A stretch of DNA of 63,813 nt, counting the filler, from Asterionella formosa (Eukaryota), in assembly GCA_002256025.1 (NCBI GenBank). It is 2 parts of 2 records of this genome, joined end to end, with 100 filler letters (N's around TTAATTAATTAA, not from the genome) between each part and the next. Parts side by side here need not be neighbours in the genome. Positions count along the whole stretch, not along the records: positions 1 to 31,872 come from NKIB01000566.1; 1 more part is not named here. One strand, given 5' to 3'. Under the pieces are notes generated by a model. The model was not told the DNA's origin. It did not search any database and worked only from the letters and a program-made list of their open reading frames with translations. Both the position numbers and the translations under genes were made by a program. Positions 13,341 through 44,200 of this stretch are shown here, piece after piece. How positions within the stretch are numbered: the first letter of the stretch is position 1; the number at the start of each line of letters is the position of its first letter.

Positions 13341-15437
13341 ATGCCCATGATGGCCACTACCACCAGCAGCTGCAGCAGCACTCGCACTTGCACTAGCATG
13401 GACAAGTTTGAGCGCTTCGAAGCATGGTTGCGAGAGAATGGAGGACACTTCGAAATGGTACGGATAAATACAAGATCAAATGGACATGTTTGGAATCAGA
13501 ATTGAATGTCAGAATGGAAGGCAAACACTCAGTTCTCTGATTCACTCAACTGATACTCACTCATCTGATACACTCACCCTGATGATAGCTGGAATTGAGA
13601 GAATACGACACGCCGAAAGGAGCCACCGGGACGGACAACCATCACAATCATGATCAGGCCATGCAGGCAGTGATCAATGAGGAGAAAAAGGCGGACGCGG
13701 CCTGCGACGACGACGACGACTGCAGCAGCAACAAAGAGTCCGAGATGAGAGGAGTGCATGCCAGATTCCCCATTGGACCGAATCAGATATGCATGGCCAT
13801 TCCTCGCAAATGCCTCATCACGGTAGAAATGGGACAAGCCACGCCCTTGGGAGCGGCCATTTTGCAATCAGAATTGGATTTGGATGCTCCCAAGCACATT
13901 TTCCTCATGATTTACCTTTTGTGGGATCGAAAGACCAACGGAGCAAGCAGCTTCTTTCATCCATACTACGAAATCTTGCCCAAGACGCTTTCCAATATGC
14001 CCATTTTCTGGAATCAAGACGAGCGGAACGCGCTGCAGGGGTCCTTTTTATTGCAGCAAATCGATGACCGCAACGAGGCCATTGCCGAAGACTATCATAC
14101 CATTGCCATTACCTGTCCACAGCTGCTGGACCTGTGCACCCTGGACGAATTCAAATGGGCACGCATGTGTGTATGCAGTAGGAACTTTGGATTGCAGATT
14201 GATGGACACCGGACTTCGGCACTGGTCCCGCATGCTGACATGTTGAATCACTATAGGCCTAGAGAAACTAAGTGGACCTTTGATGAAGAAAGACAAGCGT
14301 TTACTATTACGAGGTACGAAAGATGCTTGGTTTTTATTTGACTTTTCCTCTTGTGTTTCGCAATGAATACACATTACCAACTCACTACGTTATCACATTA
14401 CATTTTATTACATCATTTTTTTATTTCATGTTGCACAACACGACGTTAGCCTTCAACCCATTCCAGCTGGAGCTCAAGTGTATGATTCCTACGGACAAAA
14501 ATGCAACCATCGCTTCCTATTGAATTATGGTTTTGCTGTTGAAGATAATCGGGAACTGGACGGATTTTGTCCAAATGAAGTACCCTTGGAAGTTGGAGTG
14601 CAACTCAATGACCCATTGTACTTGGCGAAAATGGAATTCTGGACTCGTGGGGAATCATCCTTGGCAGCACATGCAATTGCCATTTCTTCGGCGTCATCAT
14701 CATTGTCCATCCGAACACCATACTACATTGCGTCAACACCAGAAGCATCAGCACCGCCATTTGGACATTATTCATCGCCATCTCCCATGAAACGAGTACG
14801 AGTGTGTGTTTCCAATAATGAAAATACAAGACTTTTGTTTTCGCTATTGCGTGCGCTGGCATGCAATGAACAAGAGTTGGCATCCATTACAAATAATGCA
14901 AGTCCAGAATATCAGTCAAGATTCCCGAACGACGGGAGATCGGCACCATTTTATCGATCCTGTAGGGACATTCGCCATCCAATATCCATAAGGAATGAAC
15001 GTGAGGCCATGACACTACTGATGGAATTGATTGCTCGAGTGCTGGAGGGATATCCCACTACGTTGGCTCAAGATGTGATGGACTTGCAAGACGAGGCCTT
15101 GTTGCCAAGATTTAGCAACAAACGACACGCCAAAATTCAAGTAAGGGGGGAAAAGGAAGTATTGCATCATTTTCTACGCTGGGCGCGGACAGCATTGGAA
15201 GTGATGAATGTAATTGATGAAGAATTGAAAGTGGAACGTGGTGATTACATTTTTGATGAAGGGAGGGCATCATTTGATTATCTCATTCGAGAAATGGAAC
15301 AGGAGGATCATCGAAGTGGTGGTGGTGGGGGAAATAGTGCGTTGCACCATACTATTGTTAGATACTGTGTTGATGTGTTGGGGTCGCTGCGACGTGAAGA
15401 ATTAAAGGCGTTGAAAAGAAAGTTGGCTGCATATTGA
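13341..15437 (+). CDS. SET-domain protein methyltransferase, SETD3/Rubisco LSMT-like (exons 13341-13457, 13589-14313, 14450-15437)
   Basis: FEAWLRENG, RGVHA, IPRKCLIT, PYYEILP, FKWA..VCSRNF, LVPHADMLNH, YDSYG..N.RFLLNYGF, YPTTL; two GT-AG introns keep frame; alternative start 13398. Confidence 0.9.
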
Positions 15438-15735: not shown

Positions 15736-16575
15736 CTAGTCTACTGGATTAAATTGAAAGACAAAGCACCCTGCTTGCAAGTCATTCGTTCCATCTCGAA
15801 GCCAAGTCCAATTGGAAAATAAGCTTTGCCGGATCTGCGAGGGAATAACTCCTGATACACTCAAAAGGATGCCGCCTGGGACAATGCACCGTTCCAATTC
15901 TTTGACAGCTGCTTCTACATGACCATCGCCTGATAAATAAATAGCATCCAATGTTCCCTTTTCCAAAATGGCATCATATCGGCATGTCCATTCCATGGGC
16001 AAATGCCTTGCATCCAATTGTATCACATCCACAGTATTCATCATTGCTGGCTCGTACCATAACAAATCCCGTTGTCGGTCAATGGCATATTGAGAATAAT
16101 CAAATCCTGTCAAATGAAGATATCCAGATTTCCATAAATTTACTAGTAGTGGATCATTCCCTATTCCAGGACAAAGGATTTGTGCTGCTTTATTAGGAAC
16201 ATGTCGAACCCAATGTACCTTGATGGAATCATCCCATCCATAATACCAAGAATATTCCTCCATGGGAAAATCCCCTCTCCCCGAGTACACATCATCCCAA
16301 TATTGACGTCTCCCAAAGGCTGATCTTGCGTCATTGTCGTCATCGTTGCTGTCGTTGGAAGAAAGAGTACCGGTTGTATTCGCATTAGTACAACTGCCAA
16401 CAGACGTACGACAAGTAGTTGTAGTACTTCTTCTGGTACTACTTCTTGGAGGAGTCTGGAACAGTGGAAAGGCCCAAGTTGTATTGTTGATTATTAATAG
16501 TAATAGTAATAACAATGATTGTAGTAGACATTGTGAAGGAACAACACTGGGGAAGAAATGGTCATGTCTTGTCAT
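15736..16575 (-). CDS. Class I SAM-dependent methyltransferase (EEF1AKMT4/METTL13 N-terminal-like), probable plastid presequence
   Basis: FG..QYWDDVY, YSWY, ILCPGIGN, FDYS, LDAR, YDAILEKGTLDA, PGG; hydrophobic signal ending TWA-FPL then S/T/R-rich stretch. Confidence 0.85.
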   Translation of the reverse strand: MTRHDHFFPSVVPSQCLLQSLLLLLLLIINNTTWAFPLFQTPPRSSTRRSTTTTCRTSVGSCTNANTTGTLSSNDSNDDDNDARSAFGRRQYWDDVYSGRGDFPMEEYSWYYGWDDSIKVHWVRHVPNKAAQILCPGIGNDPLLVNLWKSGYLHLTGFDYSQYAIDRQRDLLWYEPAMMNTVDVIQLDARHLPMEWTCRYDAILEKGTLDAIYLSGDGHVEAAVKELERCIVPGGILLSVSGVIPSQIRQSLFSNWTWLRDGTNDLQAGCFVFQFNPVD

Positions 16576-17113
16576 CTTGATTATTTGTTTCATCAGACGA
16601 CACACGCAGCCATCAGCCAATCCTTTTATTTTTATATATATTTGGTTCTATTTATGATTAATTTTATGAAGCAACAAAGCAGGCGGTGCGAGTTGTAATT
16701 CTGGAGTGTCCTGCGATGATGCCCTGACGACATGAACATAATGGTCCTATCTACCGGTATTCATGACACATCATTTTGGGCTAAAAGAAAAAAAGCAAAT
16801 AAAAATAGCTAAAAAATGATCATGAGCTGCATAGTACCTGGTGCTACTATAGTCTACATAGACAGTAAAGTATATTACCGGTACATACGGCTTATTACAT
16901 GTACCGGATGGAACAAGGAATCTTGTACGTACGTATGCTGATACCAGAAAAGCACATGTGTACGAGTATCTACATGACCTAAATCTGTACATAGCTAGCT
17001 ACCTGTACTTGGTCCACCAACAATTGTGATCATAGCTACGGGTAGTAAAGAAAAAAAATCACTTTTTTAAAAATAGGTATAAATAAAACCACAATCAATA
17101 CAACTGCAACATC

Positions 17114-17803
17114 ATGTCAGGATCATCAGGAGCCTCAACCGCTTCGTCAGTCACTACCGGCACGCCTTCGCCCAAGAACACTTTTATCAAACTGTCCATG
17201 GAAGAACTCATAGCTCAAAAGCTGGCACAAGACCGGCCGACGATGGATGCTGCCATTAAATCATTTCTTAGTTTGGCCCTTGCCAGGACCAATAATGGCT
17301 CTGCTACCGGTATCACTCCTGCAACTCTCATGGCATGTGCCAAAACGCTCCTTCATGCCATCAATACCTATACATTTAGTGTCAAGGACGATGCAGCTAC
17401 TACTACCAGTACATCCTTGGAACATGACACAATTGCAACTCTTTGGAATGGATTAGTAGAAAGCAATCAGAAACCTAGTCGTTTCTTGGGACGACTGGCA
17501 TTGTTGGAATGCTGGAAGGACATATTGGTCCACACTGTTCATCCCAATGCTGCAGATTATGATTCATCTGTGCTTTTTTTCGAAGAATTTGGGACCTTGT
17601 TACTTCAATACTCAAAGGATACGGCTCATGTTCCTGATGAGGATAGTGATGCACACTTAATTTGGGGAGATGCCAATGCCGAACTTGAACGCCGTCGTAC
17701 CAGACGAGCGAAACGAGCAGAAGCCAACAAAGACCAAGAGCGAGCAAGTAAAGTCGTAACTACACTAGAAGGAGGGGAAGTTGAAATGCCGAAAGGAGAA
17801 TAA
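17114..17803 (+). CDS. Hypothetical protein (229 aa)
   Basis: ATG-started ORF with globular-looking composition between known genes. Confidence 0.7.
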   Translation: MSGSSGASTASSVTTGTPSPKNTFIKLSMEELIAQKLAQDRPTMDAAIKSFLSLALARTNNGSATGITPATLMACAKTLLHAINTYTFSVKDDAATTTSTSLEHDTIATLWNGLVESNQKPSRFLGRLALLECWKDILVHTVHPNAADYDSSVLFFEEFGTLLLQYSKDTAHVPDEDSDAHLIWGDANAELERRRTRRAKRAEANKDQERASKVVTTLEGGEVEMPKGE

Positions 17804-17999
17804 CAAATGTATATAAGTAAATAGGCAACTGCAAACAACTTATGATAGCAAAATCCATTGCTCATTGAAAAATATATAGATAATGTATGAATTGATCGCC
17901 TCGTTTCGTTTTTCTTCTCTCTTGTAGTCGTTCAAGTGGAAACTCTCATTTTCGATCTTTTGGAAAATATCTGACGACTTAATGCAACACAATATAAAT

Positions 18000-20475
18000 T
18001 TACTGCTTCACTTCATTCTGTGTTGCATCCAAAAATGCAAACCGCTCTTGGCGAATCTTGCGCCACTGTTTCTTGGACGCCTTGACATCCTTGCGAAGAC
18101 TCTCCTCCTCAAGGCGTTCCTTCTTGTTGGGGTCCATAATGGCTTCAAACGCTTCGGCAGGAGCAGCAAGGAAGGAATCCCAAAGAGACGTTTCGGCCTC
18201 CTTCTTCTCAGTCGACTTTTGGCTCTCTGTAAATAACAAAATTGTGTGAGACAAATAAATACAAACTCAAAAATAAATTTGGGCGTATTATTTCAAAAAC
18301 GTACCAGCCTTGTTGAGCTCCATTGCCACTTCATCCGCTTCCCTTGTCTTGCCAAGCTTTCGCAAAACCTTTTCATAATACTTTTGCAGAATAAGTGTCT
18401 CGTGATGACCAGGGCCAAGATCAGGCGATTCGCATCGCAACTTGATCAACTGTTTCAACGTTACTTCGGCCCAAACATCTAACCCATGCTTCATGAACAA
18501 ACCAGTCTCGGCAAAGTAATCCAAAATATACTTCTCTTGATACCACTCCAAGCTGTCTAGTGGCGTGTCGGCAACGGCCTCTTCCGCCATGACAATGAGT
18601 TCCGCCATGGTCTTGCGGTCCAAACCTTCCAAGGCATCGTAGGGATCACCAAAGGAATCTGTAGAGTACTCCAGACAGTGACGGTAGTGTCGGAATCCGT
18701 CAACTCCACATACAGTCCACATGGGCCAAAGATGGATCTGAATTTCACAAATATGGTCCTTCAACTCCAGGTTAATCTTGCAATCACGGTATCCACCAGC
18801 CATAGACTTGTGATCTGACTTTAAGGAGGATAACTTGACACGACGAATCAAGGGGCCAAATGAATCGCGCGCCAATTCCAAGAGCGCCAACAAGGACGGA
18901 AAGTCCTTGACGACAAGCAATGCACGGCAATAGTCCGTCACCTTGAGCAAATCGCCTTCGTACTTCTTCTCAGCCTTTTTGATGGCAGCAGCAGCATCCT
19001 TAATTGGACCCACTCCGACCTCTTCCATTCCAAGAGATCCAGCCAAAGCCTTACAAATCTCGACAAGCGATGGCAAGGCCGCTTCCGCCTGTTTCACCAC
19101 AGCTGCCGCTACTTGCGACTTGGTCATTTGAGCGTATTCCGGAAAGTCCTTTTGAATTACTTGCTTGCTCGAAGGATCATATCCAGAAGCGTCCCCAGGA
19201 TCATTCAATCCCGTCATGGAATTAAGGTACGGATATACAGGATCCAACTGCATCTTGCGGAAGACTTCATCATATTTGCGCTTGTCACGAAGGAGAGAAC
19301 AAATCATGCGGTAGAAATCCCAACTATCCTTAATGACAGCACGTCGTTTGGCAATTGCCTCAAGGGCTTCAGCATCGTATTCTTCACCAGTCGCAGCTTG
19401 GTGTTCGACAGAATAGTAAATGCCCCCGGCGCCGCCCTTGGACTTTTGATCAGGAATAGTGCCTGATCGGACAAGCTGATTGGAATAGTTGGCCAAATTG
19501 AGATAGGCTTCTTCAATTTTGTCACGCTGGCCATCATTCAGGCTTTCCTTGCCCCAATTGAGGGAAACCTGTTGTGTGGACACCTTTGCGAATAATGGGA
19601 AAATGAGAAAATGGTTAATTCACGTTTGCCACAAAAGGATGAAATCAAGAGACAAGGGAGTAACAACAAGTGTACCCACTTACCTTTTGGCCACTAGCCT
19701 TGGCCATGGCTTTGACAGCCTTTGATTTGCCTTTGTGTCCCAACATCATATCCATCGTTTCCAACCAGGCAATGGCACTTCGCTGTTCACACGCCACCAG
19801 CGTGGTCTTGGTCCCATCAATGCCAGTAAGGACAATCCCACGTCGGGATGGGTCATCGCTGGGGGCGGCAGCTGCCACCACCATGGAAGTGAGCAGCGTG
19901 TCCATGTTGGTGTTGGAATGCGGATTTGACATGAGTGTCACAGTATGGGTAGAAGTATCTAGTTTGTAAATCAAAATTCCTTCCGGAACGCGTTGGTAGC
20001 GTTGTTCCTTGCGCTTCTCTCGCTCCTTCTCTTTTCTAGACAACTTTTGTGCTTGACGAGCGGTAAGAGCCTCCTGCTCGGCAGCACTGAGGACAGCATC
20101 ATTATTCCTGCAGCACCCCCAACCAAAAGGTTTCTTCACCTTTTGTAACGCCGAGGCATTCGTCGTGGGCTCTGCGGTAGCATCCGACTTGTCCTCGTCA
20201 AGGCCGGGCGTCGACGCTTGCAGTTCAATAGCATTCTTGCCCTGACCTTCGACAGGAGGGTATGAGTAGGCAGGGTCCACAAATGCAGCTTCGAGGATGG
20301 TGCCGTTTACCAAAGCGATTGGTTCAGGTTCTTTCTCGACAGCAGGCGCGGCCTCTTCTTCAACAGGCGCAGGATCTACTTGCTCCTCGGGTGCATCTTC
20401 TTTTGCGACAGCCTCCTCAACAGGATTTTCCGGCGTTGTTGTCTCACGAGAAGATTCAAGAGCTATTGCTGTCAT
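18000..20475 (-). CDS. PH domain + RelA/SpoT-like nucleotidyltransferase + TPR-like protein (exons 20475-19684, 19583-18305, 18226-18000)
   Basis: GT-AG introns 19584-19683 and 18227-18304 join three ORFs in frame; PH-like TTLVACEQRSAIAWLETM; GPIK...KK..KYEGD...TDYCRA, GGYRD, HICEIQ; LGPGHHETL...LGKTREA. Confidence 0.8.
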
Positions 20476-21099
20476 GATTGCTGTGGTTGTTTGTCCTTTA
20501 ATACCTAGAATACCTATAGAAAAGGCCAGACAAACAGTAACAGCAAGAAAATATTATGTCAGATCTGCAAATGTGATAGGTTTTTTCGAGCACGTCCGGT
20601 ACATTCAGCGGGCACTCTGCATCAAGTTGATGTTCTCGAACAACCAACGACCGGTAATTGGAAACACACATCTACCGTATGACAATAGTGTACCGGTAGA
20701 CTAATTCCTTACCAATGTAATCTATAGCTACAATACTAGAGAATGAGCTGAAGCAATGTTAGGGAACGAGCACCTAACGGATGAAAGATGACGCTGTGGA
20801 GCAGGTTTGATTGTGCAGATCTCGTGTTTCTCACAAGCTTTGGCGAAAATTCCAACGGACTATCTATTTTTATGGAGACTCAAATTCCAATGATTAAACA
20901 TATTTGTATGCATTCATAAACAGATTGTTACTTTTCACTGGACTCCGAATGACCGGCTCGCGTGCACAAATGCGTTGGGCGGAGAGGCTGGATGATGACA
21001 AGATTTCTCGCGGACATGGGAATTTCGCAGTCGTGACAGACAAGCGGACCCCCCCCCCACCTGGTACCAGTACCAGGGTACCTGGTACCTGAAGAATGC

Positions 21100-22717: not shown

Positions 22718-23642
22718 TTACATCATGGTGTAAAGTTTGATGGCAAATTGCGCCAAAATGGAAAGAATCAACATCACTCCCAGAACCACGGGACCGACAG
22801 TGTCTTCGTAAGGACCAGGTGACTTTTGACGAATCATGGCCGATCGACGAGCGTACTGGTACATGGAATAACAAATAAATGCGATAGCCACAGGGAGCAA
22901 AAGGACGCCATACAGTTGGGACCAGGGATTGGAATCAGCAAAGGCCACAATCGCCACCGAAGCTCCCGCCAACAGAATCGATGCATGCAACCATGCGAGA
23001 AAGGTACGTTCATTGGCAAAAAAGACTTTCGGTTCCACCTTGACGGGCGCCTTGCGTTCTCGTGACAGCGTTCCCACCGCCCCATATGCACGATTACTCG
23101 GTGGAGACGCAGAGGAACCAAACAGTTTCTGAAAGAAAGTGGGTTGCGGAGTAGCCGATCGAGAATGCGAGCTCGCTGGTCTTGGCTGAAGAAGTTTGAG
23201 GCAACATCATGGTAGTGCGGGATACGCAAGGCAAGAAGTGAGTCAGTGTTCTTGTAGCATGACTATGTTTTGTTTCTGAAATTGATTCTGATACCATTTG
23301 CGACAATTAATTCGCAACAGATGAACGAATCTTGATCGAATCTCCCAATGGAAAACATTCGAGATTCCAGTTCCATAACAAAACGTCGTGAGGCTATTTA
23401 CAAGGGACGGAACTCACTTTGATTCCAACGGGTCGAGCGGCAAATTCAGCTTCGGAAGAGCCTTGTGGAAGTGTTTCAACTACAGCAAGGCCATCCTCAT
23501 CGCGAACGGACGAATGGACTCCTCCTTCAGTTGATTCGCTCTTGAGGAAATAGTAACTAGATCCATTTCCACTTGCATTTGAGGGAAGCAACGACGTTGT
23601 TTCGTCGGTTTTCGAGGGAGAGCCAAAGCCAAAGCCAAACAT
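22718..23642 (-). CDS. VTC1: Vacuolar transporter chaperone 1-like protein (DUF202), polyphosphate synthesis complex (exons 23642-23418, 23185-22718)
   Basis: KVEPKVFFANERTFLAWLH plus three TM helices and YEDTVGP; intron 23186-23417 GT-AG in frame. Confidence 0.9.
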
Positions 23643-26332: not shown

Positions 26333-27535
26333 TTAATTTACTCCCGTGACTACTTTAGCAGCTCCTTGCCTTGTGCTTGCCCTGGGACGATGTTGACTGT
26401 TATTGTTGGCGACAACCTTAGTAAGTACAAGATCAAGTCCGATGTTCTTGGCTGCTCGTTGGGCTGTTTGTTTTGCCTTCAATTCAAGAATTCTACTTCG
26501 TCGGATCGCCCTCCTCTTGTATACTACATTGCTGCCTTCGAGATGACTCATCTTGATACCAGGAAAGCAAACCATTACAAGGGTCATATTGTCTCGACTA
26601 TTTTTCTCTAAACACATGTCAAGAATTTCCTCACACACCAAGCCAATATTCGTTTCTCCTTCATCGAAAATTCGCTGCACCATGCCACCGCACAGCTCGT
26701 TCGTGGCCACATCCCAAATTCCGTCACAGGCCAATATAATGAATTGATCATTTACCTCATCTCTTGGATACACAATGACATCTGGATTGCAAATCACCTT
26801 TTGCTTTCTTGCTACGATATCTTCCTCTGCCTTGAAGCTAAAGTCTCCAAGACCTCGACTTACAGCCAAGTCGCCATCCACCCGCTTCATTTTGACGAAT
26901 CCACCAGCAGCAACAATGCGTTCAGTTTCGGGTACGTTGCTGGGTTTGTGATCAAAACTTAGGGGCAAGATCCTATCTCCTCGTTTCAAAATAGCGCGGG
27001 AGTCACCTGCGTTGGCACATAATATATGAGTTGGAGTCACCATAACGACGATAATGGTCGATCCCGATCGTTCGGTTTTGGTTCTACCATCTTCTGCTTC
27101 TTTCTGTTCTTTCTGTAATTCTTCATTTCGCATCGCATGGATACGACGTAGCTCGACATCCATGTCTTCAAACGTTCCTTTCAGGGCCTCTCGTAACAGC
27201 TCTATGCCAGTGACATCGCATCGTCCTTTGCTTCCGTCCTTGGCGAGAACAACATACTTGTTCATTTCCTGTCGCATCGCGAGCAACTTAACAAATGTCG
27301 CTCCGGCGAATGCAGATGTTAAGGTTCCACCATGGCCATCATAGACAGCAAAGAGGGAGTGATCGTCTAGTTGTTTCTGTTGACTTGTGACGGGAATGGA
27401 TGTGCACACCGTGTGGCAATCTTCCATAGAGACCCTCCATCCCTTCATCGACGACGCAGCGAAACGAAGATCCTGTGTATTGCCTTGCTCTGTAACCTTT
27501 TCGGTCACATGGTCCAAGTCCATTACATTGCCCAT
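26333..27535 (-). CDS. Protein phosphatase 2C (PPM1A/PTC2-like)
   Basis: SMKGWRVSMED, VYDGHGG, SGST, ANAGDSR, DHKP, LAVSRGLGD, ACDGIWD, SRDN; MGN start (myristoylation-type). Confidence 0.95.
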   Translation of the reverse strand: MGNVMDLDHVTEKVTEQGNTQDLRFAASSMKGWRVSMEDCHTVCTSIPVTSQQKQLDDHSLFAVYDGHGGTLTSAFAGATFVKLLAMRQEMNKYVVLAKDGSKGRCDVTGIELLREALKGTFEDMDVELRRIHAMRNEELQKEQKEAEDGRTKTERSGSTIIVVMVTPTHILCANAGDSRAILKRGDRILPLSFDHKPSNVPETERIVAAGGFVKMKRVDGDLAVSRGLGDFSFKAEEDIVARKQKVICNPDVIVYPRDEVNDQFIILACDGIWDVATNELCGGMVQRIFDEGETNIGLVCEEILDMCLEKNSRDNMTLVMVCFPGIKMSHLEGSNVVYKRRAIRRSRILELKAKQTAQRAAKNIGLDLVLTKVVANNNSQHRPRASTRQGAAKVVTGVN

Positions 27536-28447
27536 GATATTGTTGTGTATACCCCACAATAATTGCCCCTATCATATAGATATCTGTCCTAAAATATATT
27601 CTTTGCTACATGTTCCGCTTAATGTTGGGATCTTGCTGGATTTGTGACTACCTATATAGTACGATGGATTCTCCTGAAGATTTGGCGATCGCCATTATTA
27701 CATAAAGCAAAATGCCGAATATACATATATATCTTTTCCCACATACATAGAATAAGTTTAGCTGTTTATTATATACGTGTATGAATAAATTCAATGGTCG
27801 CTAAAGCAAGTACGGTAGTGATACTTTCGGTCCTTCTGAGGTCCGCAAGTAGGAAACGAACGGGAGGCATTCGCGGGAGACTTGTGTTATGCTGATGAAT
27901 GGGCCTTTTGTAACGGTAGAGAGTGTGTCGAGATATCATTATTTATGTAATGCGAAATATAAATACTCTAGCATACCGGTATGCCGGTAAATGATAGGGT
28001 TAGGGAATACAGCCACATCAAGTGTTCATCGTTGTGCAGCAAAACGAAGAATTCCATATAGCCGACAATTACGTACGTATTTTTTCCGAAAGTCTTTTTC
28101 GATCGCGCCAGATCATTGATTCACAATCCCTGCTGGATGAAGAAAGGATTGCACACTTTTGAATAGACGTCACTAAATACTGACGACTGCTCTAGATATT
28201 CATGTCTTCTCACAATTTCGCAGCATCTATTAATTGCGAACATGCATGCCATGCGTCACATCATGACATTGGCAATATAGCATTTTGAAGTGGAAAAATG
28301 TCGGTATAAAGGGAAATGAGCTTGTTGGGAACAAAAACAATTGTTTCCTTAAAGATAGCTGAGTATGACATCCGAGCCAAATCCCTCTAAACGTGAATGC
28401 CGTGGCCACATATCAATCCGAATTTCCTTCACCTACGATGCCAGCCA

Positions 28448-29251
28448 TTATGGTTCCAACGAAGTTGTAGTGGCAGTCAGCAATACATACTCCCTGGTGG
28501 ATGCTCCGAATTTCAATACATCTCCTTTTTTCAATTGATAATATCGTGCAGCATCTATTTGTACACCATTGATAAAAGTTCCATTCGTAGATTCCAAATC
28601 CATTAAATATGGTTGACACTGCAATTTCCCAGTCTCCTTATTGGGCAACGCTCGATATTGTAACACCGCGTGTTGACTTGAACAACTTACATGCAACAGG
28701 GCAACGTCGGCAATCTCAGCATTTCGACCAAACAAATATGCTGATTGTTTTGAAACATGAAGGGTTTCAATTTGTTCGTCTCCTTTAAAGACATATAATC
28801 TCCACAGAGTATTCGGAGCTCTAGCTTCCGGTGGTTCACTGAATTTCAGGACAACTCCCTTGTATGTATTCCCCTTGAGTTCATCCTTTGCCAAGGCCCC
28901 AGAAAGACCAAAATTTGGTTTTTCTGTCGGTGCCACAGCAGTTGTTGTATTGCCGCTGGTGCTGTCGTCTTGGAGTGTCCCTCCTCGATCACCTGGCCTG
29001 GCATAGTAATTATCCTCTGCTACCTGAATACTCTTATTTTTATTGCTGGCCATGGGCTTTCGCTGAGATCTCCGATCATCATCTTGTCGTCCCCGCTTTT
29101 TCAGCTCCTTTTCACGCTCTCTAGATTCTGCAGATTGCAACAAAGCGCAGAGAGCGTCTTGATCAGAGACAGCAGTGAGGGAAGGCGCTGGTGTTGGTGC
29201 GCCGCCCCATCGGCTTCTCTTGCGATTGTTCTGATCCTTTCCATTACTCAT
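28448..29251 (-). CDS. SNIP1: FHA-domain protein SNIP1/Pml1/DAWDLE (RES splicing complex)
   Basis: EKPNFGLSGALA, LKFSEPPEAR.P, WRLYVFK, YLFGR, SCSSQHAVLQYR, PYLMDLESTNGT, FGASTREYVLL. Confidence 0.93.
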   Translation of the reverse strand: MSNGKDQNNRKRSRWGGAPTPAPSLTAVSDQDALCALLQSAESREREKELKKRGRQDDDRRSQRKPMASNKNKSIQVAEDNYYARPGDRGGTLQDDSTSGNTTTAVAPTEKPNFGLSGALAKDELKGNTYKGVVLKFSEPPEARAPNTLWRLYVFKGDEQIETLHVSKQSAYLFGRNAEIADVALLHVSCSSQHAVLQYRALPNKETGKLQCQPYLMDLESTNGTFINGVQIDAARYYQLKKGDVLKFGASTREYVLLTATTTSLEP

Positions 29252-29493
29252 GGCTTGGTACGTTCGTAATATGTCTTAGTATGCAAAGGAGGATCAGCCA
29301 CAATGATGATGGAAGGGATGTCGAATTAAGTGCTGCGGCATCGCTACCTTCTAATTCGTGAGAGCTTGCTTACAAAGTGGTTTCATCACAGCGCGCATCA
29401 TGATTGATTTTTGTGTGGCTGCCCGAGGGAAGAAGTACCGGTACATACGCTGCAGTACAAGGAGCACTTGCTTCCCATGTCAAAGTCGAACAT

Positions 29494-39879: not shown

Positions 39880-42800
39880 AAATGAGGTTACAGAGGGGGG
39901 GTATGCGATTGAGGGACTCCACAGAGCCATGAAAGCGGTGTAGATATCTGTGTGTGAGAGTGGAGCTTTCGATATATTGGTGGTCCAGATTGAGGCTTGG
40001 TCAAGACGATAAGTATATTCTTGGAGAAAGGAGCCATCTGGGGCGACACGAACGCCAAGTGAGCATTTGCCAATGGAACATTCAATTCTTGGGATAGAAA
40101 AACTGGAAAGAGAGCGGCTGACATAAAGAGATTGATTTCGGGGGAGTGGAAATTGGCATGAAGGGTGGGCTTACCGATGTTATCCCAAGACCATTCTATC
40201 AGATAAAAGAAAAAAATTTGAAGCGCAAGAGCTCTGTCACTAGCAAACAGAAGGCTTTCCCAGTGTTGGGCGACCTTTTGCATGGATGAAACAAGGGCAG
40301 GGCTGCTAGAGAGGGTCTTGGATGTGATCCAAAGATCCGTATCGTCTACAAATGCCTCCCCTGGGCGGTTGGAGTGGCGGAAAGAGCAAGGACAATGGGC
40401 GGGAAAGCCATTAGTGAGGGTGGAAAGAGCTTGGAGGAGCACATTGCTCACGCACATTCATATACAGGGGTCAGCGCCACTGCCCTGCAGAACTCCCAAA
40501 ATGAGAAGAGTGCTGGTGGTGGTGAAATGGGCTGATGAGACACCATAAGCTGTCTGAACAAAAGAATTCATAGCAAAAATGATGGCAAGCATGCAGGTGG
40601 CAGCTGAAGAGGGCATTCCAACACGTTCTGTGGCCATGAGACTGAGAGAGGGAATAATTCGGTTGTAGCAAGCTTTGGTATCATTGTTAAATGTAGTGGC
40701 GCAAGAGTGGCGGAGGCAAATGTAGCTAGTCATAGGAGATAATCTTGAGGAGAATAGCGCATAGGCAGCTGGCACAAGGAAGATTGCCAAAGTTCCATCG
40801 AGTCAGAGCAAGCGCTGTGATGGAGAGCATGATAAACTAGGCGTCTACCCCATAGAAGGCAGAATGCTAAATTCATGTTGGGCTCAAGTAGTTGAATTAC
40901 TTGGAGGCGGGTGATGAGAGGATTGCCACTGTCTTTCTCAAGCATGACCTGGATGGCGGTAAGCCAATGAGTGGGGGCAAAACCAAATCGAGATGGGAGA
41001 GTAATCGTGAAGGCAAGAAGAGTCGATATGGAGTCATCCCTGGCTAGAACCTTGTAGTGGGTTAAATGACAACCGGATGGGCTGGAGGCAGTATTTTCGG
41101 AAGTGTTTTGAAATTCGGATTGGAAATCCTCCATTGTGATAGTTATATCAATTGGGTCTATGCCCTGGAGGGAGGCTTGGACAGACATAGTTTGAGAAAA
41201 AGGCTGACTTCCAAGATGGGATCTATTGATGTTGTGTCAAAGGTGCTGCCACAGAGAATGAAGTCCGTGAGATGGTTTCGAGAGAATGGAGGGAGAAGAG
41301 TACTAAGAAGGTGGCCACTTGCACCAGGAGATGAAGCGGCTTGACTGAAATGTTGGATATTTTGGGCTATAATTGCATCAAATAGTAGGAGGGCAGGGTT
41401 GGAGAGGGAGGTGGTCTGGCCAGTGGGAAAACCACCTTGAAAGAGGGTAATTTCAACCTGTTGAAGAGTGGAGTGGTGATATCCTTTGTCATGCTGCCTT
41501 AGTTTTTGGAAGGTGCGTCTGACCTCTTCGGCTTTTCTAATGTTGTTTAGAGCGATTTCGGCAGTGGAATCAGAGTGCCTGGAGGCATGTTCGGCCTTCT
41601 CTTCAAGATGGGCAGCTCGGAGAACATCTGCTTTGACTTGACACTCATCGAGGGCAAGCAAGACAGGTGGAGCGTAAGGCATTGAGAGAGTATTGGGGGT
41701 TGTGGCGGTTGAGAAGGATAGTAGTAGGTATGTTGGGATGGGGATGGGAGGATGGCTTATTGAGACTCCTTGCAAGGGCACCATCGCCAAAGTTCTGGCA
41801 ATCGAAGTGATGTTTCTTCCAGAATAGATAATTTTGACCATGGAGCATGAGGGCGGGTGACCAGGGATAGACATAGGACGAGGCATGAGCAGAGCGTTTT
41901 TCCGCATGGAGAAGGGCAGCAGTGATATCTCGGTCTATCAATTCATATAGAGTTGGATGACTGTGCGGGGAGCATTGGTGGTGCTGAGATGGGCAAGATA
42001 TGTGTAGCAGGAGAAGACCTGGTGAGCAAATGTTGAGGTAGTGGTGGAAAAAGGAAAGATATCATTGGCACTGCTCCTCTGGGTTGCGTAGTCGAAGGAG
42101 TCATTGGCTGGGGTCAGTTGGGGGGTCAGTGGAGCTATCCTGGAAGAGCATGTGTTCATCAAGGTCGACATAAATAGCATGGTGGTCGTCGCTGAATGGG
42201 CTTTGTTCATAGCTCAGAATACCACCTTTGCAAACTGCACATAGAAAGAGTGTAGTTCCAAAAATAAAATCGATGCGGCGACCTTTGAAAGAAGTGGAAG
42301 CTGAAGGGGGAAGGGAGGTGTGCAAATCTGTGAGGGAGCATTTCCTCATAAAGGACTGTATGTCAGGATCAGTGTGGAGAGAATTTGCGTCCCACATGAG
42401 GATGATTTCTTAATTGTTGGACTTGCCAGGAGGTAATGGTGGTAGTGGAATCAGAGCAAGGAGGAGTGGAGGAGACATTGCGGTGTTTGGGTTCAGAGAG
42501 GGTGCATTGGTCGCTGTGGCTGGCGCCAGAGTTGCGATTGGACTTGGAGCAGGTGAGGGGAGGGAGTGCTGGAGAGTCGGAGTCTCCATATGGGGTGTAC
42601 TGTAGCAGAATGGAGAGAGTGTTTGTGGAGTGGAAGGGAAGATCATCTAGAGTTTGATGTGATTGATGATGATCTAAGGCATGCCAGACACTAGCTGATG
42701 AAATTGTAGGGAATTGTGTCTTTAAGATGGGGTACAGAGTTACGATGAAGAACTCAAGGTAATTTACATTGGCAAAGTGAGTGCAGAGGTAAAGAGCTGA

Positions 42801-44200
42801 GGGATCAGAGGCATCAGTTTCAATGCTGCAAAACAAATATTTCGTCCCTGGAGATGGTTCTGAAAAACTGAGTAGGGCGCTTCCAAGAGTTTTGTGGGAG
42901 TCGGGAAAAAGATGGGTGAGTGGCAGGAGACTGGTGACTTTAATGGCCTCTTAGTTGTTGTTCTTGAATCTTGGAGGCATAGGTTTGGTCGGAGAGTCCC
43001 AAAATTTTTGGAGACAGAAAGATCATGTACCTTGGAAGGGATACTGAGAGGAGAATTTAGTTTGTTCCTTTGGGGAGAGAACGTCTTGAAGCATGCGGCT
43101 GGCACAAGATTGATAGGGAGGAGATGTGCAGATAACAATCGCATGGGCTTTTAGTATGGTGGGGTAACTGCTGGGGCCATCTACTTGGCACCACAGACAG
43201 AAAAAGGGGAGAGGAATGCTTAAGTGAGAGTGGGCTAGTGTAGAAAGTTGTTGCTGGAGGGAGATGCGGTTCATTTTATGATAAGAAAATAAGAGCCAAC
43301 CACACTCAACCGGAAGGTCACCATGGAATTGATCAATTCTTATGAGCCATTGATTGTGCGCCAATGAAAGGGAAGGAATTAGAGTTAGTATGGGTTGGCA
43401 TGTGTTGAGATGGATTCTTCCTTTGACAGATCGTTCATCGAGAGTTCTTCCCCCATGGAGAAGAGAGGTAAAACTGTTGAGCCCTATGAAATGTTGTACT
43501 AGGGAAGTTACAGAGGTGGGGAATGAAGAATCGGAGGCAAGAACTTTGTTGGGTTTACCCGAGACAGAGTTGAGAGTGGCATAATGGTGATAAAAGAATA
43601 GCGCTGTGAAGAGAGATCGGACTGTGTCCGCTTTCTCAGAGGAAGAGTAATTCGTTGGGACTGGTATGATTGGTATGATGTGGGACAGTGGGACTCGGAA
43701 GAAGAGCCAGATGGAGTGAAAGGCTCCTGATGGTGGAGCAGGGAATGGTGGTTCGGGAAGCTCAGCAACGTGAGTAGTGGACGTGTCGTCTGAAGATTCA
43801 GCAGAGGTTCCCATCTTGGGGGGTGCCAGAGAGAGGTAGGAGGAATCGATAGCATCGGTATTGGGTGTGCGCTTTTTGGTCGCTTTTTGTGGGAGGATGC
43901 CACTGAACAGTTGACAGAGGCGGTAGTCGGGAGAGTTGGGGCTGCAGCAGGAGAGGCAGGGATAGGAGAATGGCGCTTGAAGTAAGCACCAATAGAGGGT
44001 TGTGCCAAAAGTTGATTCTGTTTCAATGGGAAGAGCTGAGTTTGAGGCGAGTTGTTGGATTTCTGTTTGGCGAGGGCGAGCTGTTGGAGGGAGGAAGGGA
44101 GTGGGGAAGGGCGGAAACAGCGGCGCCCAAAGTGGGCATGGTGAACAGCGGCGTGAGCAGAAAAAGGCGTGTAGCAGCGTCCGTAGACCCAATACTAGAC
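39880..44200 (-). mobile_element. Decayed non-LTR retrotransposon (Ambal-like): ORF1, APE endonuclease, reverse transcriptase
   Basis: APE: WDANS, RRIDFIFG, SDDHHAIYVD; RT: SSPSG.H..HYK, MLEK..G, NDTKACYNRI, GVLQGSG, AFVDDTD; many frameshifts. Confidence 0.9.

Follow-up and report, generated by a model that had tools for sequence, protein, structure and literature searches.

The DNA analyzed here is a stretch of 63,813 nucleotides from the diatom Asterionella formosa (GenBank assembly GCA_002256025.1), which is called the window in the following. It consists of parts of two records joined by 100 filler letters, and positions 1 to 31,872 come from NKIB01000566.1. The reading of open reading frames (ORFs), their translation and the alignment of RNA contigs revealed a three-exon gene on the minus strand which spans positions 20475–18000. 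The encoded protein has approximately 765 amino acid residues, the split junction codon counted, and contains a synthetase domain of the RelA/SpoT homologue (RSH) superfamily together with a PH fold and tetratricopeptide repeats (TPRs). All features of the gene described below lie on the minus strand. Residues of exon 1 are numbered according to P0001 and those of exon 2 according to P0002.

Exon 1 (20475–19684; P0001) encodes 264 residues. Exon 2 (19583–18305; P0002) encodes 426 residues and provides the first base of a split codon, and exon 3 (18226–18000) contributes 75 residues including the junction codon (P0003 comprises 74 residues read from 18224). The stop codon TAA is located at 18002–18000. 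Both introns have GT..AG borders. Intron 1 (19584–19683) has a length of 100 nt and interrupts the coding region in phase 0; intron 2 (18227–18304) has a length of 78 nt and lies in phase 1, where the junction codon G|AG specifies Glu.

Contigs of four RNA sequencing runs from three studies were aligned to positions 17900–20600 of the window. Both introns were precisely removed in all four runs. At the joint of intron 1 exactly 100 nt were skipped in each run, with CT..AC ends on the plus strand and the cut at +2, and the joint of intron 2 exhibited CT..AC ends on the plus strand as well. In three of the four runs one contig crossed all three exons; these contigs extended from 17900, beyond which they continued at the 3′ end, up to 20514–20565 at the 5′ end. 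The stored product P0004 (698 residues) showed 100% identity over its matched part and reads through both junctions, with ...ASGQK|VSTQQ... across intron 1 and ...ELNKA-E-SQKST... across intron 2. The three exons had been predicted in a first-pass annotation made from the DNA alone, in which sequencing of RNA was proposed as a check of the introns. This check confirmed the gene model, and the exons are joined in a single mRNA and are not transcribed as separate genes. The stretch is present in at least 20 sequencing runs, 19 of them recorded as RNA, from 17 studies which are mostly freshwater metatranscriptomes, and the contigs are evidence of presence and structure, not of expression level. 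Several field samples unrelated to each other contained the gene in their polyA RNA. Its surroundings are diatom-like, with short GT..AG introns and a GC content of 35–49% in 2-kb windows. The gene is real, belongs to the nuclear genome of a freshwater diatom and is expressed.

Two kinds of sequence difference were observed. The first 13–14 residues of P0004 differ from exon 1 of the window (relative of 20220–20475), and this N-terminus is not encoded in the window in any of the six frames searched. It may represent an alternative 5′ exon located elsewhere or an assembly artefact and was kept out of the gene model. Environmental RNA contigs further differed from the window by single bases at 20148–20149, 17934–17980, 18165, 18732, 19236, 19326 and 20425. 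At 20148/20149 the two differences together turn Leu into Val in ...ASALQ..., in agreement with ASAVQ of P0004. These differences look like allelic or strain variants.

The synthetase domain of exon 2

The synthetase (pyrophosphokinase) domain covers exon-2 residues 153–316 (18636–19127) and exhibits a RelA/SpoT-superfamily fold of the Tas1 type. When the three exon products were scanned as single sequences, Pfam and NCBIfam yielded noise matches only. A single-sequence phmmer search against the PDB found Tas1 with an E value of 0.98, which is not significant alone. Tas1 (Apk1; 6ox6), a (pp)pApp-synthesizing type VI secretion effector of Pseudomonas aeruginosa, is the sole solved protein for which significant sequence similarity was obtained, and this was achieved with profiles. 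A profile of 45 sequences matched Tas1 with an E value of 1.1e-13, and a profile of the 20 closest relatives (A3; 31–80% identity) with 4.2e-4. With a domain-only profile of 16 sequences (A4) Tas1 was the sole PDB match at E ≤ 0.01 (E 4.6e-16), profile positions 30–182 being aligned to Tas1 residues 247–415. The next A4 matches at E ≤ 10 were 8fr8 (RelA) and RelSeq with 0.054 each, 5xnx (Rel) with 0.15 and YwaC with 0.16. No CapRel or FaRel2 chain was found among the A4 matches in the PDB at E ≤ 10.

An AlphaFold2 model of exon 2 was obtained with a predicted local distance difference test (pLDDT) score of 87.3 and a predicted template modelling (pTM) score of 0.79; the pLDDT fell below 50 only at residues 1–14 and 37–63. 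A Foldseek search of this model against the PDB yielded four matches at E ≤ 0.001, all of which are RSH synthetases (Tas1, SAS1 and the small alarmone synthetase (SAS) of S. mutans). The top match was Tas1 with an E value of 9.7e-6. The structural relationship to the RelA/SpoT fold, on which the first-pass annotation had made its proposal depend, was thereby found. The next Foldseek ranks listed were RelP, RelSeq, SAS2, an exported SAS, RelA, CapRel and FaRel2. The top match of VIA-align was also Tas1, at approximately 20% identity. In the structure comparison SAS2 (10.9), RelP (10.9), CapRel (10.7) and SAS1 (10.5) ranked below Tas1, and B. subtilis Rel (10.1), SaEAS (9.6) and SpoT (9.2) took lower ranks. 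The model contains an alpha/beta fold with a five-stranded sheet which is superimposable on RelSeq, SAS or Tas1. Its elements follow each other in the order beta1, basic helix, beta2, helix, beta3, loop, beta4, beta5 and helix, and the motifs are placed as in SAS and Rel enzymes. The ESM Atlas returned unnamed clusters and one cluster with 17% RelA_SpoT members.

The first-pass annotation had related four motifs of this domain to the RelA/SpoT synthetase family PF04607. The motifs can indeed be aligned to RelSeq; the kinship with PF04607 itself has to be restricted, since the domain stays below the threshold of this family and Tas1 is far closer. The PF04607 gathering threshold of 27 bits was passed by two distant matches of the query, P0218 (33.6 bits) and P0222 (31.3 bits). 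An overlap between the RelA_SpoT match and the query-aligned stretch was seen in P0222 and, with scores below the threshold, in P0237 and P0272; the match of P0218 is located in another part of the protein. The domain belongs to the RSH synthetase superfamily with Tas1 as its nearest relative and is, by threshold, not a member of PF04607.

All four motifs (K...K, D..R, GGYRD and EIQ) were recovered, at K195/K203, D217/R220, residues 263–267 (18797–18783) and residues 280–282 (18746–18738). In the alignment with RelSeq (1vj7) G192 corresponds to G240, P193 to R241, K195 to K243, K203 to K251 and D217 to D264; G264-Y265 matches the G-Y of the loop and E280-I-Q matches E323-I-Q. We take D264 (Asp/Mg2+) and E323 (Glu of ExQ) to be catalytic residues of RelSeq. 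Conservation was counted among stored proteins which match A4 at E ≤ 1e-3 (256 rows from 253 proteins), where rows with a gap at the position in question do not enter the total and the set is dominated by close orthologs. The donor-site basic motif K195...K203 (GPIKDAAAAIKK; 18975–19001), aligned to K243 and K251 of RelSeq, retained K195 in 238 of 238 and K203 in 236 of 236 rows. Within D217-x-x-R220 (18924–18935), D217, the counterpart of the catalytic/Mg2+ residue D264, was kept in 233 of 234 and R220 in 234 of 235 rows. The GGYRD G-loop (18783–18797) carries Y265, which is aligned to the acceptor-base-stacking Tyr of RelSeq and SAS. In this loop G264 was kept in 232/234, Y265 in 230/234 (the other four have Phe) and R266 in 231/234 rows. 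The loop aligns as GGYRd with NGYQS and NGYRS, GY being common to RelSeq, Mtb Rel, YwaC and Tas1. E280-I-Q282 (18738–18746), which contains the putative catalytic Glu, retained E280 in 232 of 232 and Q282 in 213 of 231 rows. R248 was found in 224 of 236. In the 45-sequence alignment, which reaches down to 17% identity, K195, K203, G210, D217, R220 and E280 are invariant. Both acidic residues aligned to D264 and E323 are therefore conserved in the relatives, as the annotation had required for its proposal.

Two cysteines lie next to these motifs, C219 (18927–18929) at D217+2 and C279 (18747–18749) at E280−1. Of the 20 closest relatives, 90% or more retain them. A disulphide between the two or another redox influence on the active site is conceivable.

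Conservation, flanking modules and location

A word-indexed protein search with the exon-2 ORF as query returned 243 proteins at E ≤ 0.001. The 120 of these 243 matches that were listed all had E ≤ 2e-196 and 68–100% identity over 89–99% of the query. The sources named among the matches listed were Synedra, Nitzschia, Cylindrotheca, Skeletonema and Bacillariaceae, by which both pennate and centric diatoms are covered. Across these two groups the orthologs share 70–80% identity. Their names in the sources were "hypothetical protein" or "uncharacterized", once "PH domain-containing protein" and once "TPR repeat protein"; the copies of Fistulifera solaris were likewise named "hypothetical". Transcriptome ORFs marked "complete" have 710–769 residues, in line with the length of the window gene. 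Out of 1.84 billion representatives, 287 proteins were matched at E ≤ 0.001 by an exhaustive phmmer search. This group contained paralogs with approximately 40% identity over query residues 75–425 and long, unrelated N-termini (the named ones from Thalassiosira and Discostella), a Triparma relative with 29% identity and many distant proteins aligned at residues ~160–300 only.

Several distant proteins carry the Tas1-like domain in other architectures. In P0246 from Ectocarpus it stands beside arrays of TPR_12/TPR_10, in P0248 (from a diplonemid) and P0251 beside leucine-rich repeats (LRRs), in P0223 together with a C-terminal ubiquitin domain and in P0267 with ZZ, C1 and FYVE zinc fingers. These five architectures suggest a broader, undescribed eukaryotic use of the Tas1-like fold. 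In the proteins P0237 (Phage_Mu_F) and P0252 and P0272 (ddrB-like ParB), which have 1,109–2,115 residues, the Tas1-like domain is joined to other modules; among these three, a RelA_SpoT match below threshold was seen in P0237 and P0272 only. Such combinations of Phage_Mu_F or ddrB-like ParB are presumably typical of polyvalent proteins of mobile elements. P0237, P0252 and P0272 are probably prokaryotic relatives of the diatom family.

Regional mean identity was computed against 36 full-length orthologs. It was highest for the catalytic domain (81%), followed by the helix and loop before it (79%), the TPR region (70%), a charged C-terminal segment (66%, versus 44% for the linker before it) and the PH core (61%). 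The linkers reached 30–44%.

Exon 1 begins with a poorly conserved acidic tail (residues 1–57; 20305–20475; pLDDT ~46–60). Its 16 D/E versus 3 K/R agree with the acidic N-terminus of the first-pass annotation. The tail is followed by the conserved strand GTILEAAFV (residues 58–66; 20278–20304), in which A64 and F65 do not vary among 37 aligned rows and residues 60–66 were modelled as a strand with a pLDDT of ~95. PH-domain structure alignments begin at model residues 53–61, and we therefore regard this segment as the modelled first strand of a split PH domain. The core of the PH fold comprises residues 163–250 (19726–19989). It completes a seven-stranded beta-sandwich, and its C-terminal helix contains the conserved Trp of the PH superfold, here the invariant W237. 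The PH-like segment that had been proposed is supported as a fold at 19989–19726; the earlier account has to be extended by the additional N-terminal strand at 20304–20278. Between this strand and the core lies an insert of approximately 100 residues which carries a CC motif and a basic helix. The CC motif, GWGCC (residues 118–122; 20110–20124), corresponds to the GCC motif noted before and might be S-palmitoylated at both cysteines; C121 as well as C122 is found in 36 of the 37 rows. The long basic helix (residues 131–161; 19993–20085) precedes the PH core, has a pLDDT above 90 and contains 10 K/R versus 6 D/E.

In exon 2 the catalytic domain is preceded by a highly conserved helix and loop (residues 71–150; 19134–19373), the helix H71–111 having a pLDDT above 90. 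It is followed by TPR helices of the kinesin light chain (KLC) type (residues 318–426; 18306–18632), approximately 2.5 repeats with five helices. Profile similarity to the KLC-type repeats (TPR_12/TPR_10) was found. KLC1 was matched with an E value of 5.3e-5 by the close-family profile A3 and with 9.6e-17 by a wider profile, the latter value being driven in part by TPR-rich distant members. TPR structures align across the model range 82–426, so that the predicted repeats are supported by profile and structure. The model suggests that helix 71–111 and the C-terminal TPRs form one helical scaffold into which the catalytic domain is inserted. The charged tail of exon 3, also predicted before, contains the conserved C-terminal segment DPNKKER...KKQWRKIRQERFAFLD (18027–18134) with 12 K/R and 8 D/E.

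The leaders of 29 full-length orthologs comprise 6–77 residues and are hydrophilic and acidic. A signal-peptide-like stretch was absent from all 28 leaders that were long enough to be scored, with a maximal 12-residue mean hydropathy of 0.84 in this simple hydropathy test, a crude substitute for a dedicated predictor. The plastid presequence of diatoms consists of a signal peptide with a transit peptide behind it, and import requires this ER-type signal peptide. A plastid location is therefore unlikely, and judging from these leaders the protein most likely works outside the plastid. The absence of a signal or transit peptide had been postulated, as had the absence of an HD hydrolase. By Pfam, neither the window protein nor alignment A2, whose 37 rows are exon 1 and 36 orthologs, showed HD hydrolase, TGS or ACT domains, and the same holds for NACHT and NB-ARC domains and for the toxin delivery domains PAAR and LXG.

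The flanking ORFs with Pfam matches are unrelated eukaryotic genes and do not encode a cognate immunity protein. They are located at 14367–15434 (+), 15739–16647 (−), 22721–23206 (−), 26336–27568 (−) and 28451–29275 (−) and contain Rubisco-LSMT substrate-binding, class I methyltransferase, DUF202, PP2C phosphatase and FHA domains with no obvious functional link. The ORF directly downstream of the gene, 17087–17803 (+), had no Pfam match. Positions 40001–44000 of the window showed a GC skew of +0.31 to +0.42, compared with ~0 elsewhere. The long minus-strand ORFs in this part are of low complexity and rich in Pro, Ser, Thr and Leu; they look like a degraded repeat or mobile element.

Relationship to known RelA/SpoT-type systems

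Tas1 and the diatom protein have in common the G/A-P-I-K start of the donor site, Y-x-G-D, D-x-x-R, the G-Y loop, E-I-Q and a G-H-x-x-Y-E helix after the sheet. The loop reads GGYRD in the diatom protein and LGYSG in Tas1. Tas1 has been described as a bacterial toxin which is delivered between cells and neutralized by the immunity protein Tis1 (PMC11782079, PMC7229694). In contrast, the diatom protein is conserved, endogenous and eukaryotic, has PH and TPR modules and lacks a delivery domain and a known immunity partner.

The SAS enzymes (RelQ/SAS1, RelP/SAS2 and SaEAS; 5ded, 6ewz, 6fgk and 8vx3) are single-domain proteins of ~200 residues, whereas the diatom protein of ~765 residues has three extra modules. 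It is not a stand-alone synthetase of the RelP/RelQ type (~200–250 residues), as PH, helical and TPR modules are present. Sequence similarity of SAS enzymes to the diatom family was not significant (E of at least 0.16), and the equivalent of R46 is Pro in the diatom family. For the toxic SAS (toxSAS) proteins CapRel and FaRel2 sequence similarity was undetectable with A4. Their regulator is a pseudo-Zn-finger, while the diatom protein has TPRs.

Plastid RSH enzymes (PtRSH1 and PtRSH4a/b; RSH1-4/CRSH) belong to the same superfamily, occur in the same organisms and have alignable synthetase motifs. The three Phaeodactylum tricornutum enzymes (JGI 11099, 7629 and 33947) were found by BLAST and are reported to contain domains of the HD (hydrolase or a remnant of it), synthetase, TGS and ACT types. 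The authors concluded that each of them is targeted to the chloroplast; a presequence was predicted in PtRSH1 and potentially in PtRSH4a (PMC6881373). Unlike these, the diatom protein has no HD, TGS or ACT domain and no plastid presequence, and it is invisible to PF04607. In its main text, this 2019 study of diatom RSH enzymes names only the three plastid enzymes.

Fungal NOD-like receptors (NLRs) with an N-terminal RelA_SpoT domain and C-terminal TPRs likewise represent a eukaryotic, non-organellar pairing of the RSH type with TPRs (PMC4986451). At the center of these receptors lies a NACHT or NB-ARC domain, and their repeat arrays vary; the diatom protein has neither of these NODs and is strongly conserved. 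By these comparisons the protein was rejected as a member of PF04607, as a long, plant or algal RSH, as a stand-alone SAS, as a delivered toxin and as a fungal-type NLR.

Atkinson et al. (2011, PMC3153485) mentioned, in one sentence and a table row, an unclassifiable SAS-like 'divRel[S]' (Phatr2|49781) besides Rsh1 in the heterokont algae T. pseudonana and P. tricornutum. Phatr2|49781 is not among the three PtRSH identifiers of the 2019 study. Compared by description only, it may belong to the family of the window protein or be one of its paralogs. In its passages on divRel the 2011 paper gives no architecture, localization, conservation or link to Tas1, and Tas1 was not known at that time. 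If divRel is the same family, its existence was noted in 2011 and the architecture, the conservation, the affinity to Tas1 and the non-plastid nature are new. Literature searches found no record of a protein with PH, Tas1-like and TPR modules in diatoms and no match for RelA SpoT paired with kinesin light chain. For RelA_SpoT, TPR and eukaryotes only the fungal NLR work appeared among the matches listed, and for 49781 with Phaeodactylum only unrelated number matches. The term 'eukaryot' is absent from the main texts of PMC7229694 and PMC12691689. Six diatom, brown-alga and 'Eukaryota' names are absent from six supplement files of PMC12691689, files which may hold accessions only.

Proposed function and alternative explanations

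By analogy to the characterized superfamily members, we propose that the diatom protein may be a regulated cytosolic, membrane-associated pyrophosphokinase which makes a (pp)pApp- or (pp)pGpp-type nucleotide. We give this proposal an even chance. K195, K203, R220 and R248 would form the donor site for ATP, with D217 and E280 as ligands of Mg2+. The beta,gamma-pyrophosphate would then pass from ATP to the 3′-OH of the acceptor ribose, and the base of the acceptor would stack on Y265 in the GGYRD loop. The acceptor would most likely be a purine nucleotide, leading to a (pp)pApp- or (pp)pGpp-type messenger. The activity is probably gated, because unregulated Tas1-type enzymes deplete ATP and are lethal; gating would most likely fall to the flanking conserved helix together with the TPR scaffold. 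In the literature, blocking of the donor site is linked to tRNA enzymes and blocking of the acceptor site to (pp)pApp makers (PMC11782079). Placement at a membrane would be brought about by the split PH domain and by its insert with the basic helix and the CC motif, which is probably palmitoylated.

Several observations weigh against this proposal. RelA_SpoT was absent from the Pfam scan of the window protein even at E ≤ 10, and none of the 37 A2 rows matched it at E ≤ 0.1; the latter failure also accounts for the missing annotation of the diatom family. In 225 of 238 members a Pro takes the place of RelSeq R241 and SAS1 R46, an ATP-binding residue (PMC6881373). In the loop, GGYRD-C-(K/I) replaces GYxSxH, a deviation which the first-pass annotation had pointed out correctly, and therefore the acceptor chemistry is not readable from the sequence. 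Of the Tas1/Apk1 homologues, of which 2,959 are covered in the paper cited here, some are reported to be (p)ppGpp-specific or to prefer guanylate acceptors and others to make (p)ppApp (PMC12691689). Consequently, the likeness to Tas1 leaves the product unfixed. Finally, S-palmitoylation of the CC motif and gating of the catalytic domain by the TPRs are conjectures, and beta1-beta2 of the PH fold, IY(K/R)LDT..(H/R)T, has no clear phosphoinositide-binding signature.

The departures in the donor site can be accounted for by the comparison with Tas1. In the diatom family the basic residue is located at +3 from the catalytic Asp (D-x-x-R), versus +5 in canonical RSH enzymes. Tas1 departs likewise at the Pro and D-x-x-R positions (APIK and DLAR) and is active and very fast. 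Thus, these departures mark a Tas1-like lineage and not a loss of function.

An alternative to the nucleotide synthetase is an RNA 3′-end pyrophosphokinase like FaRel2, PhRel2 and CapRel, which would modify the tRNA CCA end or another RNA 3′-OH and throttle translation, for example under stress. We consider this unlikely. By sequence Tas1 alone was significant (4.6e-16), and no CapRel or FaRel2 chain was matched by A4. The conserved basic residues R248 and R266 flank the Tyr, a pattern which is tied to nucleotide acceptors. A "large positive patch" has been ascribed to the nucleotide-using synthetases, in contrast to the tRNA-using FaRel2 (PMC11782079). As R248 and R266 beside the Tyr fit this description, a purine-nucleotide acceptor is weakly favored, and these residues argue weakly for a nucleotide rather than tRNA. 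Furthermore, no pseudo-Zn-finger or N-terminal tRNA-recognition element was identified, and no search aimed at them was made.

The same chemistry could serve another biological role. The protein might be a latent death or immune effector, comparable to Tas1, CapRel and the RelA_SpoT heads of fungal NLRs, which is held off by its TPR module until a virus or stress trigger causes an ATP drain or a flood of (pp)pApp and programmed death of the diatom cell. We regard such a role as quite improbable. In its favor, Tas1 as the nearest solved protein is a toxin, the domain stands beside sensor-type repeats in more distant eukaryotic proteins (the long TPR arrays of P0246 and the LRRs of P0248 and P0251), and a combination of RelA_SpoT domains with TPRs is reported for fungal NLRs (PMC4986451). 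However, an identity of 70–80% with the catalytic and TPR parts most conserved resembles the purifying selection on a housekeeping protein and not an arms-race receptor. The window protein and the 37 A2 rows contain no NACHT or NB-ARC domain and there are only ~2.5 TPRs. In addition, the gene is expressed, as seen in polyA RNA of the unrelated field samples.

With still greater reserve we consider a different acceptor, such as another ribose-containing cofactor or a protein, or a role as sensor or scaffold in which nucleotides are bound but hardly or not at all turned over. The GYRD loop is unlike that of characterized enzymes, the R241 equivalent is Pro and the family is too divergent for PF04607. 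The 79% conservation of the non-catalytic helix and loop suggests important protein-protein contacts, which would suit a scaffold. On the other hand, the known ATP-Mg2+ and acceptor-base residues are essentially invariant in ~230 sequences including distant ones, and pseudoenzymes usually lose them. Tas1 with the same Pro and D-x-x-R spacing is extremely active. The possibility that the motifs resemble those of RSH enzymes by chance and that the region is an unrelated alpha/beta domain, for which the missing Pfam match of the single sequence and its E value of only 0.98 for Tas1 might speak, is effectively refuted.

The proposed cytosolic pyrophosphokinase may be part of a wider system. Tentatively, and with the balance of probability somewhat against it, we suggest that all diatoms, and possibly their sister group Triparma, have a non-plastid alarmone-type pathway in which a membrane-tethered, TPR-gated Tas1-type synthetase would respond to a membrane or protein signal by producing cytosolic (pp)pApp or (pp)pGpp.

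To our knowledge, eukaryotic alarmone biology has so far been confined to plastid RSH enzymes and the hydrolase MESH1. ppGpp has also been reported in animals, in which no synthetase is known for it (PMC7666150, PMC9894426). Standard surveys miss the diatom family because it is invisible to Pfam and annotated as "hypothetical protein". Diatoms are major global primary producers. If the proposal is true, they would be able to make hyperphosphorylated nucleotides, or to pyrophosphorylate RNA 3′ ends, by a second route outside the plastid which is tied to membrane and TPR-mediated inputs. The enzyme would then be a domesticated relative of a bacterial toxin and the first non-organellar nucleotide signaling enzyme of the RSH type with a conserved physiological role in a eukaryote.

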